Shown here: in pieces, positions 4,525-6,325 of the stretch
Numbering within the stretch: position 1 is the stretch's first letter
Layout of the letters: every line of letters starts with the position of its first letter
From: an uncultured delta proteobacterium
GTDB taxonomy: Bacteria; Desulfobacterota; Desulfobaccia; Desulfobaccales; 0-14-0-80-60-11
Reading direction: 5' to 3'
Assembly: GCA_963812015.1 (NCBI GenBank)
Contig: CAWETI010000003.1
Span: forward strand, 1,600,001-1,664,000
DNA: 64,000 nt
Notes under the pieces: generated by a model
Seen by the model: only the letters and a program-made list of their open reading frames with translations
What the model was told of the DNA's origin: nothing
Database searches by the model: none
Position numbers and translations under genes: made by a program

Positions 4525-5319
4525 TCATTTCACCCTTTTCGCCTTTTTCCCCCTAATCTCTCCCCCTTTTCCCCCTTTTTTCCGCTTTTTCCGTAAAGCC
4601 CGGGTGCCGGCCTTCCAGGGGGGCTCTTCTTTTTTGCCTTTGGATCGCCGGGGTTTGGCCGCGGGCTGGAACATCCCGGGCAGGTCCAGGGTGAAGCTGC
4701 CGGGGGTGGGAGCCGGGGGCCGGGGCATCGAAGGTTTAGCTTTTTCCGGGACCTGGGGCGGGGGCGGTAGTTGCAGAAGATCCCGGGGCAGGGCCGGGGC
4801 CAGATACAGGCCATCGCCGTAGCCCGTAAAGCTGATGCCGCGCCGGGCCGCGGCCTGGGCTTGGACGGTGACCAGGATGGGCTCCGGGGCCCGGCGGCGC
4901 CCCAGTTTCATGGCCATCTCCGGCGTCGCGGCCAGCACCAGTTCCTGGTCCGGGGGCGGCTTGAGCCCTGCCTCCCACACTTTCCCGTGGGCCTTGGGAG
5001 GGATGGCGGCATAGAGCAGGGCAGGGGGGGGCTCCTCCAGAGGGCGGCGGAGCCGGGCCGGCTCCGGGCTCAGAGCGCGGATCTGCTCCCCGGCCACCTC
5101 GAAGGCCGGGGGCGACATCAGGCCCACCACCTGGTCCAGGTGATGGCGCCGGACGAAACCAAAGCCGGGATCCCTGGTTAAAATCTGGAGCAGGTGCTTG
5201 ATGGGGATGAACCCCGCGTCCGAGAGCACCAGCCCGAACTCGTCGGGCCGGTGGCTCAGGATGTAGGTGAGCATCCGGGCCAGGCCTTCCAGTTGCCGGG
5301 GCAGACGGTACATTTTCAC
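4525..5319 (-). CDS. KptA/Tpt1-like RNA 2'-phosphotransferase homolog with degenerate catalytic motifs
   Basis: LARMLTYILSHRPDEFGLVLSDAGFIPI resembles the KptA N-terminus; GRRR...PILVTV C-lobe; long Pro/Lys-rich tail. Confidence 0.75.
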   Translation of the reverse strand: MKMYRLPRQLEGLARMLTYILSHRPDEFGLVLSDAGFIPIKHLLQILTRDPGFGFVRRHHLDQVVGLMSPPAFEVAGEQIRALSPEPARLRRPLEEPPPALLYAAIPPKAHGKVWEAGLKPPPDQELVLAATPEMAMKLGRRRAPEPILVTVQAQAAARRGISFTGYGDGLYLAPALPRDLLQLPPPPQVPEKAKPSMPRPPAPTPGSFTLDLPGMFQPAAKPRRSKGKKEEPPWKAGTRALRKKRKKGGKGGEIRGKKAKRVK

Positions 5320-5333
5320 CTTCGCTTAACGCT

Positions 5334-5543
5334 TTACCTATCCTGAGCCGGTGCCCCGGCCGGCGGTTGGCCGGGACTGGTGGGGTTGTACGCTAAAGGT
5401 TCCGTCCTTTGAGATGCCAGGTTTATTCCTGCCGTTGTCTGGAAGGGCTGACTGCTGCTTGACCGCAGCGACTTGGCCCCCCCTCAACAGCCGCACACCC
5501 CCAAAAACATCACCAGAGACAATAAGAGGCCTGCTTTCTTCAC
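5334..5543 (-). CDS. Candidate selenocysteine-containing small lipoprotein (69 aa, UGA at codon 20)
   Basis: GGGAG RBS 8 nt before GTG; MKKAGLLLSLVMFLGVCGC-U-GGAKSLRSSSSQPFQTTAGINLASQRTEPLAYNPTSPGQPPAGAPAQDR; frame stays open for 49 codons after the TGA; SECIS-like hairpin follows. Confidence 0.65.
5441..5483 (-). promoter_or_regulatory. Putative bacterial SECIS element
   Basis: After the UGA: lower stem GGGGGGGC/GCCCUUCC, upper stem GCUGC/GCAGC, apical loop GGUCAA starting 19 nt after the UGA. Confidence 0.65.
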
Positions 5544-5785
5544 GTTTCACGCTCCCATCAGGATTTAGAGAAAATATATCCCCTGGGGGCGAATTTAGTC
5601 AAATCATAATGCCCAGGCCAAATCAGGTGACTGCTCATCGGGGCTGTCTGGACTCAAAGCAAAGAACCTTTTAACGCGGCTCGGAAACCTGACCGGGAAA
5701 AATAACCCCCCACCGGCTCACAACTACCAACCATTGTTGATGGCGGTTGACAAGCTGAGAAGAAATGATAATTATATTTGGATAA

Positions 5786-6325
5786 ATGGAACAGGCGCGA
5801 TATTTCCACCAGGATCAAAAGGAGCTTTTGAACGAGGCCGCGGTTATCGCCGAGGAGGTTACCTCCGACTTTTTTAAGCTGTCTGTCAGCCACTGGCGCC
5901 GCGCCCGCTATGACATCCTGACCCTGGAGGCCCTGCGGGCCGAGGAGATCAGCCCCCACGCCCTGGCCATGGTGGCCAAGTACAACGGCTGCCCGCAGGA
6001 TCGTTTGTTGCGTTCTGCGGCCTTTGATTTTTACCGGGTCTGCCTGCAAGACCACAACATCCTCAAGACCTTGAGGCAGTCTGCCGGCTTGAGTCTGTTC
6101 CCCCTGCTCCTTTACATCCTTACCCACGAACTGGTGCATATCGTGCGGTTCAGCCAGTTCCAGGCCCTCTTCGAGACCCCGGAGGAGCAGAAGCAGGAAG
6201 AAGAACGGCGGGTGCACCACCTGACGCAGAAAATCCTGGCGCCCTTGCAGGTTCGGGATTTACCGCCGGTGATGCGATATTATGATGACCAGGTTCAAGG
6301 AGATTGTCGGTATGCCAATTTATGA
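5786..6325 (+). CDS. Conserved hypothetical protein with an HExxH motif
   Basis: THELVH motif; 179 aa; overlaps the start of the next gene. Confidence 0.75.
   Translation: MEQARYFHQDQKELLNEAAVIAEEVTSDFFKLSVSHWRRARYDILTLEALRAEEISPHALAMVAKYNGCPQDRLLRSAAFDFYRVCLQDHNILKTLRQSAGLSLFPLLLYILTHELVHIVRFSQFQALFETPEEQKQEEERRVHHLTQKILAPLQVRDLPPVMRYYDDQVQGDCRYANL

Follow-up and report, generated by a model that had tools for sequence, protein, structure and literature searches.

A small gene with a conserved in-frame UGA in Desulfobaccales, predicted to encode a lipopeptide with selenocysteine beside its lipid-anchor cysteine

The window analyzed in this study is a stretch of 64,000 nucleotides from an uncultured delta proteobacterium of the order Desulfobaccales (contig CAWETI010000003.1, positions 1,600,001 to 1,664,000). 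On its minus strand, positions 5334..5543 hold a 69-codon gene predicted to encode a seleno-lipopeptide (precursor, 69 aa; predicted mature form, 51 aa), and the elements that follow lie on the same strand. A predicted sigma-70-like promoter (TTGACT, 18 nt, TATATT; 10/12 matches) is located at 5573..5602, and a Shine-Dalgarno-like GGGAG (5552..5556) stands 8 nt 5′ of the GTG start. Codons 1 to 18 (5490..5543) encode a lipoprotein-type signal peptide with a basic n-region, a hydrophobic helix, and a Gly at −1 that is invariant among the relatives described below. Cys19 (5487..5489), a Cys in all members, is the predicted lipidated +1 residue, and the in-frame TGA at 5484..5486 would place selenocysteine (Sec) at +2 of the mature lipopeptide. 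The upper stem-loop of the candidate SECIS element (5454..5469) has a 5-bp stem and a GGUCAA loop (5464-5459) that begins 19 nt after the UGA; in this copy, it is enclosed by a lower stem at 5441..5483 (arms 5483-5476 and 5448-5441). The 49-codon tail (5337..5483) is predicted to be disordered and is weakly constrained; it ends in a TAA (5336-5334) that lies 14 nt before the GTG (5319) of a Tpt1/KptA-family gene (4525..5319). The layout described in the first-pass annotation of this DNA (GGGAG, 8 nt, GTG, 19 codons ending in Val-Cys-Gly-Cys, TGA, 49 codons, TAA, and 14 nt) was found in the sequence in every detail, and the gene is indeed missing from the standard list of open reading frames.

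Promoter sites were found twice in the region, compared with 0.4 in shuffled sequences, and the same hexamers recur ahead of the gene in L013 and L014, the two relatives in which it also precedes kptA. A Shine-Dalgarno-like 4-mer with a start codon is present in 99 of 103 family members. No terminator was found in the region of the gene, the hairpin having no U-tract, and the gene is probably cotranscribed with its KptA-like neighbor. The product of the latter scores 63 bits against an NCBIfam equivalog cutoff of 231 and has a Pro/Lys-rich C-terminal extension; by its sequence, it is a divergent Tpt1/KptA member. It lies outside the conserved context of the family, and the closeness of the two genes, to which the first-pass annotation had drawn attention, turned out to be incidental (3/52 genomic copies). 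On the other side of the gene and divergent from it, positions 5786-6325 of the plus strand encode a conserved 179-aa protein with an H-E-x-x-H-like motif and no match in Pfam or NCBIfam, which is syntenic in genomes G005 and G012. Contigs from RNA libraries of relatives (∼90% identity) cover 5447-5609 in two of four runs, a coverage that cannot show transcription, and none of the RNA runs contains this strain (best share, 0.07).

Within the 3.96-Mb host genome (G000), this is the only site at which a Shine-Dalgarno sequence, a start codon, a lipoprotein signal, a Cys, and a stop codon follow one another (1 TGA, 0 TAA, 0 TAG), while the same scan returned 74 ordinary lipoprotein candidates. 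The two-tier hairpin folds exactly as had been claimed, with its GGUCAA loop 19 nt from the UGA, and is the minimum-energy fold of its stretch (−24.3 kcal/mol; z, −2.16; 4 of 200 shuffles equally good). Since this z value is modest on its own, it is the uniqueness in the genome together with the conservation in relatives that lifts the gene above chance. The read-through protein found no match better than an E value of 0.07 in NCBIfam 20.0 and no Pfam family, and the search of Rfam gave a single chance match (E value, 2.1).

When the read-through peptide was used as a query, TGA-interrupted relatives were returned immediately. The family now comprises 105 distinct TGA copies, nearly all in one Desulfobaccales family; the copies are related to each other, so that counts over them are not independent, and their hosts are known only from metagenome assemblies in the records examined. 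An exact pattern run over all GTDB genomes found 40 loci, 35 of them with a signal peptide and with record titles mostly naming Desulfobaccales or unclassified deltaproteobacteria; the five loci without a signal peptide were dropped as chance. A profile search of the 83 genomes of the order, which does not favor TGA, gave 53 matches, 51 of which have the in-frame TGA and are distributed over 44 genomes; the other two (in G463 and G047) are unrelated, and a second match in L114 is false. The carriers are the host genome and 43 of the 68 other genomes of its family. The gene is absent from the remaining 25 and from all 14 genomes of the sister family, most of which have selA. Outside the order, a near-identical copy was found only in G323 among 401 genomes of the phylum searched by profile and by a looser pattern; weaker phylum-wide matches (11 loci examined) were generic lipoproteins or chance, and the looser pattern added two chance matches. 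No copy was found on viral contigs or plasmids, nor was a longer fused form of the peptide found, which is weak evidence. Several genomes carry two to four copies. Conservation of the gene, its TGA, and its hairpin is shown across these relatives, and on this comparison, 5334..5543 (−) is a genuine small gene, unannotated, and a member of a conserved family.

The in-frame UGA is very likely read as Sec, and the codons found at the site support this reading. TGA occupies it in 51 of 51 true profile matches of the order. A metagenome pattern that left this codon free and required the core of the hairpin (it catches 43 of the 52 genomic members and is blind to hairpin-less Cys forms) returned 81 stretches, of which 80 were fetched: 78 have TGA, one has CGA, and one is a chance match with no signal peptide. 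None of these 80 loci has TAA, TAG, TGC, or TGT at the site. For comparison, TGA ends only 653 of 1,778 long genes of this genome, and 49 family tails end in TAA (31), TGA (11), or TAG (7). Homologs with TAA or TAG in place of the TGA, which the first-pass annotation had named as evidence against its reading, are thus lacking in both sets.

The TGA/Cys-codon pairs that it had proposed to look for were also not found, and the replacements that do occur are Gly and Arg. No Cys homolog was detected among 1.84 billion protein representatives (5 matches), in word-indexed searches, or in the genomes, with a sensitivity limited by the short, low-complexity queries. Of the five matches of the profile search, P0002 and P0005 are gene-calling artifacts over family loci, in which the TGA was translated as Trp or the start was misplaced; the others are the CGA (Arg) variant, a chance match, and P0004. 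The last is a 55-residue lipoprotein in which Gly replaces Sec and Pro-Arg-Ser-Ser-Gly replaces the peptide encoded by the hairpin; it has two cluster mates, and P0010 is related to it at 78% identity. P0004, P0008, P0009, and P0010 form a Sec-less sister lineage with Gly at +2, in which the hairpin-encoded peptide has decayed and the full-length lipopeptide is kept. The Atlas neighbors of P0004 are only generic small lipoproteins, and distant ones (0.82 to 0.84, below the lead threshold). In the protein tree, the Gly pair has a long branch and is placed inside the Sec forms (enclosing support, 91/94, from few columns), and this nested position makes a loss of Sec likelier than a Gly ancestry. 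The Gly form is not among the 83 genomes of the order. Replacement by Trp, Ser, or Gly, as a simple nonsense mutation would predict, was accordingly not seen broadly, and what exists of it is rare: Sec-less forms with Gly (two protein clusters) or Arg (one). The Gly lineage supports read-through, in that a full-length peptide exists, as well as an RNA origin of the hairpin-encoded peptide as far as protein alignment can tell, and it shows that the peptide can persist without selenium or sulfur at +2. Two single copies, L202 with CGA for TGA and L176 with a TAG three codons after the UGA, represent decay or sequencing error.

In the bSECIS model, the element is a hairpin within the open reading frame, with a 3- to 9-nt loop that starts with GG, lies 16 to 37 nt from the UGA, and has a minimum free energy of −7.5 or lower (as restated in PMC13188914). 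Coded anew in this analysis from that restatement, the model is matched by the query, by 87 of 103 members, by 7 of the 9 other Sec sites of the genome, and by 53 of 653 ordinary TGA gene ends. The distance from the UGA to the loop is 19 nt in 103 of 105 members (17 and 22 nt in the remaining two), and the hairpin reaches −7.5 or lower in all 105. Hairpins at the other Sec sites of the genome have loops starting with GGAC, GGUC, or GGA at similar distances, so that the GGUCAA loop is of the genome's own type. Within the hairpin, Leu and Arg are encoded without exception by CTG and CGG (genome use, 0.49 and 0.46), and the free loop position varies; because the codons never vary and the unpaired position does, the conserved peptide "LRSSS" is, on this codon evidence, an imprint of the RNA hairpin. 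Conservation and covariation of the hairpin had been named as a check, and the outcome is a conserved core with limited covariation: the four core pairs are invariant or wobble, and compensatory changes are confined to the four outer of the eight pairs (13 cells; 1 of 500 shuffles as high, in a control that ignores kinship).

The lower stem, in the exact form seen in the window copy, has no fixed register among relatives. One register is present in 42 of 103 members, and any lower stem in 69 of 105, compared with 473 of 1,030 shuffled 3′ parts. In the RNAalifold consensus, the SECIS stem is replaced by a pairing of its 3′ arm with the Gly-Cys-UGA codons, and this alternative pairing is the minimum-energy fold in 65 of 105 members. 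This UGA-hiding alternative (alignment A3, columns 73-81 with 103-112; window ∼5452-5492, minus strand) could be chance or a folding switch; no function was assigned to it, since it would be melted by ribosomes during elongation and is disrupted by GGA codons in 13 of 105 members. A loose pattern search for SECIS elements across the genome gave too much noise to be of use.

Coding constraint downstream of the TGA is present, weak, and fading beyond codon +29. Two out-of-frame rows of alignment A4 were left out of consideration. Complete tails run to 20 to 67 codons in 100 of 101 members, the exception being L176, which stops after three. A stop within 27 codons occurs in frame in 1 of 49 genomic members versus 18 and 14 in the other two frames; in the metagenome set (60), early stops number 4 in frame versus 13 and 16. 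Over 69 spanning-tree pairs, pN/pS is 0.38 in the signal peptide and 0.62 in tail codons +11..+28, against 0.92 and 1.13 in the shifted frames; it is 0.63 at +18..+28 (0.79 in one shifted frame) and 1.03 beyond +29. All five well-aligned tail indels are of 3 nt (∼3 events), while 13 of 16 after the stop codon are not multiples of 3. In L014, a 2-nt deletion before the hairpin shifts the frame of the tail. AlphaFold2 predicts one helix (residues 2-19) and no further structure (pLDDT, 61; pTM, 0.27), and the tails differ widely among clades. A spacer under loose constraint, carrying the SECIS, is the best reading of the tail, and the mature form that had been proposed, lipid-Cys-Sec followed by a disordered tail (here rich in Ser, Gly, Gln, and Pro), is supported as a prediction from sequence and structural modeling.

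The conserved part of the peptide consists of a Lys-rich start, the hydrophobic core, Gly-Cys-UGA, and the CTG CGG of the hairpin. Cys19 is encoded by TGC or TGT across the members, with no replacement change. The prolipoprotein features of a basic n-region, an uncharged h-region, and a lipobox that ends in [GAS]-Cys within ∼30 residues are present, a PROSITE-style lipobox pattern being matched in 97 of 103 members. The residue after Sec is Gly in 81, Ser in 11, Pro in 7, Asn in 5, and His in 1 of 105 members. The signal region has at least one extra Cys in 78 of 103 members and at least two in 47, versus 17 of 74 other lipoprotein signals of the genome; Cys residues of the h-region at −13 and −11 from the Sec codon are seen in 52 and 49 of 105 members. 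Among the 74 lipoprotein candidates of the genome, the +2 residue is Gly, Ala, or Ser in 52. On contig C3 of the same genome, two small Ala-rich lipoprotein candidates with no visible likeness to the family start with Cys-Cys (+1, +2), which indicates that Cys at +2 is tolerated there.

A host genome lacking selA, selB, or selC would have spoken against Sec insertion. G000 encodes selA, selB, selD, and tRNA-Sec, all scoring over the curated cutoffs, and selD itself contains a TGA. selA is present in 41 of the 44 carrier genomes and was not found in the other three, two of which are 96 to 97% complete. The genes lgt, lspA, and lnt are likewise present in G000. A codon-model scan of this genome revealed further in-frame TGA sites, which we take to be the Sec sites of formate dehydrogenase, HdrA, MvhA, MvhD, and rhodanese.

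The surroundings of the gene vary. Under context labels assigned in this analysis, the most frequent and most widely distributed setting is a polysaccharide deacetylase and a DUF4015 gene, with the copy lying between the two or next to them (29 of the 52 genomic copies). A further 16 copies are found in an ArsR-DGC-USP-MauE/rhodanese region, 3 precede kptA, and 4 have other surroundings. The deacetylase-DUF4015 pair is adjacent without the gene in all 15 other loci that have both, that of G000 included (24 loci examined), and an obligate link to either this pair or kptA is rejected on these counts. No link to sel genes was seen in the loci examined. The window copy is part of a divergent clade that has a promoter of its own and neighbors that vary. 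From such varied contexts across the genomic copies, we infer that the gene moves as a self-contained unit with no fixed partner.

The copies in the ArsR region make up 15 of 51 rows of the tree, forming a shallow group nested among the deacetylase copies (89/72), with members in several genera and also in G323, which belongs to another family; the TGA and SECIS are kept. This clade looks like the product of one transfer event and so counts as one observation, not 15. Its neighborhood is an island with ArsR, DGC-domain, USP, and MauE/rhodanese genes, an SBF-family transporter, CDF and RND exporters, and a heavy-metal-resistance protein; the SBF-family transporter is presumably Acr3-like. In 2 of 3 loci tested, the island copy is flanked by a direct repeat of 23 to 25 nt, resembling the outcome of an insertion that duplicates its ends. 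These repeats are imperfect (L095:1454-1478 and 1682-1706; L106:1457-1479 and 1679-1701) and overlap the 3′ end of a small upstream gene. Small proteins without a Pfam match, recurring in several genomes, flank the island gene (L265:6151-6477 and L260:7182-7415). Two further TGA-containing genes were seen beside family members. At L271:6455-7183 (+), the same gene as that upstream of L014, an AhpC/TSA-family gene inserted on the opposite strand, next to the family member with the frame-shifted tail, is split by an in-frame TGA in a W-U-P-Y-C motif and looks like a known Prx-like UxxC selenoprotein. At L038:1670-2070 (+), directly downstream of a family member, a gene for a rhodanese-like lipoprotein has an in-frame TGA (V-L-Y-U) with the frame open beyond it and is a probable selenoprotein.

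With the fdhF-type genes decoded by SelB and a SECIS, the family shares the in-frame UGA, the GG-loop hairpin within the open reading frame, and a host with selA, selB, selC, and selD; it differs from them in having no catalytic or binding domain and no Cys homolog that could be found. It shows the testable features of SelB/SECIS selenoproteins and of prolipoproteins, Cys homologs excepted. Small prolipoproteins processed by Lgt, LspA, and Lnt include lipopeptides of the size of entericidins, colicin lysis proteins, and Rz1. These share with the family a type II signal peptide, a lipobox ending in Gly-Cys, and a short low-complexity mature part; the family differs in the predicted Sec at +2 from a recoded UGA, and no sequence relationship was detected. 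A Gly-Cys-Sec-Gly redox center is known from the C terminus of mammalian thioredoxin reductase, and 81 of 105 members share these letters. The enzyme carries its motif at the C-terminal end of a flavoprotein, while that of the family is N-terminal, spans the signal-peptidase site, and comes with no flavoprotein domain. Only 15 of the 105 members have the upstream Cys that a CxxU reading needs. Cleavage would remove the first Gly of the motif, and the Cys shared by all members occupies lipobox position +1, where its thiol would be blocked and no pair of the thioredoxin reductase type could form. The likeness is a coincidence with the common lipoprotein start G-C-x-G-G. The hidden Sec-recoded lipoprotein with a genuine-looking SECIS that the first-pass annotation proposed is supported, and the CxxU and thioredoxin reductase reading falls.

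Closer in appearance are the CU families SaoC (NF040734), SaoB (NF040727), SaoL (NF040728), KCU-star/DUF466 (NF033934), and selenobacteriocin (TIGR04081), which share the Cys-Sec dipeptide and whose genes, like those of the family, are truncated or missed at the UGA; SaoC is also exported, mostly with a lipoprotein signal peptide. In the exported CU proteins described by Haft and Gwadz, CU is at the C terminus or in a domain (bioRxiv 10.1101/2022.07.06.499078). In SaoC, SaoB, SaoL, KCU-star, and selenobacteriocin, the CU is C-terminal or domain-borne, its Cys thiol is free, and homologs with Cys-Cys occur commonly, whereas the Cys of the present family is the lipobox +1 residue and its Sec is +2. 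The models for these five families and for UXX-star gave no match better than an E value of 0.07 (NCBIfam 20.0). The 2026 list of 119 prokaryotic families given as Table 1 of PMC13188914, judged by names and motifs and not by sequences, contains no entry presented as a signal-Cys-Sec lipopeptide. The full-text literature searched, which excludes most subscription papers, yielded no description of this architecture, and the family is apparently uncatalogued. According to the deep-Sep report, Cys homologs now seem to exist for all known selenoproteins, deep-Sep may miss selenoproteins that lack them, and current discovery tools retain candidates only with a known Sec homolog or with Cys homologs (PMC12013277); BSepDB is described as searching known families only (PMC13326102).

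For the pathway, SelB would very probably insert Sec at the UGA by way of the downstream hairpin. Lgt would then likely lipidate Cys19, LspA remove residues 1-18, and Lnt acylate the product, giving acyl-Cys(+1)-Sec(+2)-Gly-Gly with a floppy tail. In a lipidated lipoprotein, the sulfur of the anchor Cys becomes a thioether. A Cys-Sec redox pair would thus be excluded, and the selenol would be the sole conserved reactive group of a lipid-Cys-Sec peptide that would sit on the periplasmic face of a membrane. So tethered, the selenol would trap soft metal(loid)s or oxidants, such as As(III), Hg, Cu, Ag, or lipid and sulfur oxidants, and diselenide dimers would be recycled by periplasmic reductants. 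A role as a membrane-anchored selenol trap for soft metal(loid)s or oxidants is a tentative proposal drawn from motif and context, to which we give somewhat less than an even chance. Stoichiometric capture suits a peptide that lacks a fold, a partner gene, and a second conserved residue better than catalysis does. The move of one clade into the ArsR/DGC metal-resistance island is the sole contextual hint of function; the commonest context, deacetylase-DUF4015 (29/52), says nothing on metals and counts against the trap.

That context is also an argument for an envelope lipoprotein with a structural or cell wall role in the deacetylase-DUF4015 operon, in which Sec would be inserted but accessory. 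Being the commonest and widest setting, it favors this reading, as do the retention of the whole peptide by the Gly lineage, at 78% identity between its two clusters, and the fact that Gly, Ala, and Ser are usual at +2 in lipoproteins of the genome (52/74). We nevertheless regard it as unlikely: a UGA and an invariant SECIS in ∼100 copies cost read-through efficiency, while the single-base changes to Gly, Ser, or Cys are almost never seen, and the tail has no fold and varies widely among clades in an operon that elsewhere lacks the gene.

An equally small chance falls to a selenium sink or buffer, in which Sec is parked in a cheap exported peptide for storage, for disposal, or as a decoy for SelB and Sec-tRNA, with selection acting only on export and Sec insertion. 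Strong conservation is indeed restricted to the export signal, the anchor Cys, the UGA, and the SECIS; the lack of a Cys homolog among 1.84 billion representatives is expected if selenium itself matters; and the host has many Sec sites. One selenium per 69 residues is, however, a poor store, the loci examined show no link to sel genes, and the Gly lineage would have no reason to persist.

The first-pass annotation had offered a further alternative, an uncleaved peptide. In this reading, a single membrane helix would be retained, and adjacent Cys and Sec residues at the surface of the membrane would serve in redox chemistry or metal relay. Its appeal lies in the Cys-rich signal regions (at least one extra Cys in 78/103 and at least two in 47, versus 17/74) and in the CU motifs of SaoL, SaoB, and HgcA, which are described as metal-handling selenoproteins (10.1101/2022.07.06.499078; PMC13188914). 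We consider its chance to be slightly smaller, since 97 of 103 members have a lipobox with an invariant Gly at −1 like the other lipoproteins of the genome, the extra Cys positions vary across clades and are absent from the h-region of the window copy, and the hydrophobic run of ∼14 to 15 residues is short for a stable transmembrane helix.

Very unlikely is a sorting switch, in which a selenolate or its oxidized form at +2 mimics the Lol avoidance of Asp at +2 and redox state or selenium supply sets the membrane of residence. Sec does sit exactly at the position whose negative charge is described as controlling Lol sorting in E. coli (PMC5727369; see also PMC11005994 for the +2 rule). The rule was shown for E. 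coli and not for this lineage, in which Asp occupies +2 in 1 of 74 candidates, and there is no cargo domain whose location would matter. Hara and colleagues reportedly found in 2003 that an oxidized Cys at +2 also blocks release. Finally, an ordinary stop codon ending a hydrophobic peptide of 19 to 20 residues (type I toxin-like or a signal-peptide remnant), with another job for the hairpin, would agree with the length and hydrophobicity of small membrane peptides, the two to four copies in several genomes, and the loss of the normal tail in L014 and L176, but is highly improbable given 0 TAA or TAG among the 80 free-codon loci and 51 profile matches, a GG-loop hairpin at SECIS distance with neither U-tract nor terminator, the in-frame constraint on the tail, and the existence of full-length Gly and Arg forms.

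Almost all catalogued bacterial selenoproteins are folded proteins of redox or metal chemistry that have Cys homologs. The family described here departs from that pattern, with no domain, no Cys homolog found, and a predicted Sec at the +2 position of a lipoprotein. We lean toward the view that it is the first family of ribosomal seleno-lipopeptides, domain-less and with no sulfur version, in which Sec directly behind the lipid-anchor Cys would decorate a membrane with a free selenol. The narrow taxonomic range limits the significance of the family itself. If the reading is true, it would add a new architecture, the lipid-anchored selenol, and expose a blind spot in selenoproteome catalogues, namely, a class of selenoproteins invisible to screens based on Cys homology; other lineages may hide analogous mini-genes made of a signal peptide, a Cys, and a UGA. 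The cassette of 150 nt would also offer a means to ask whether Lgt, LspA, and Lol handle Sec and what role a lone selenol plays at a membrane.
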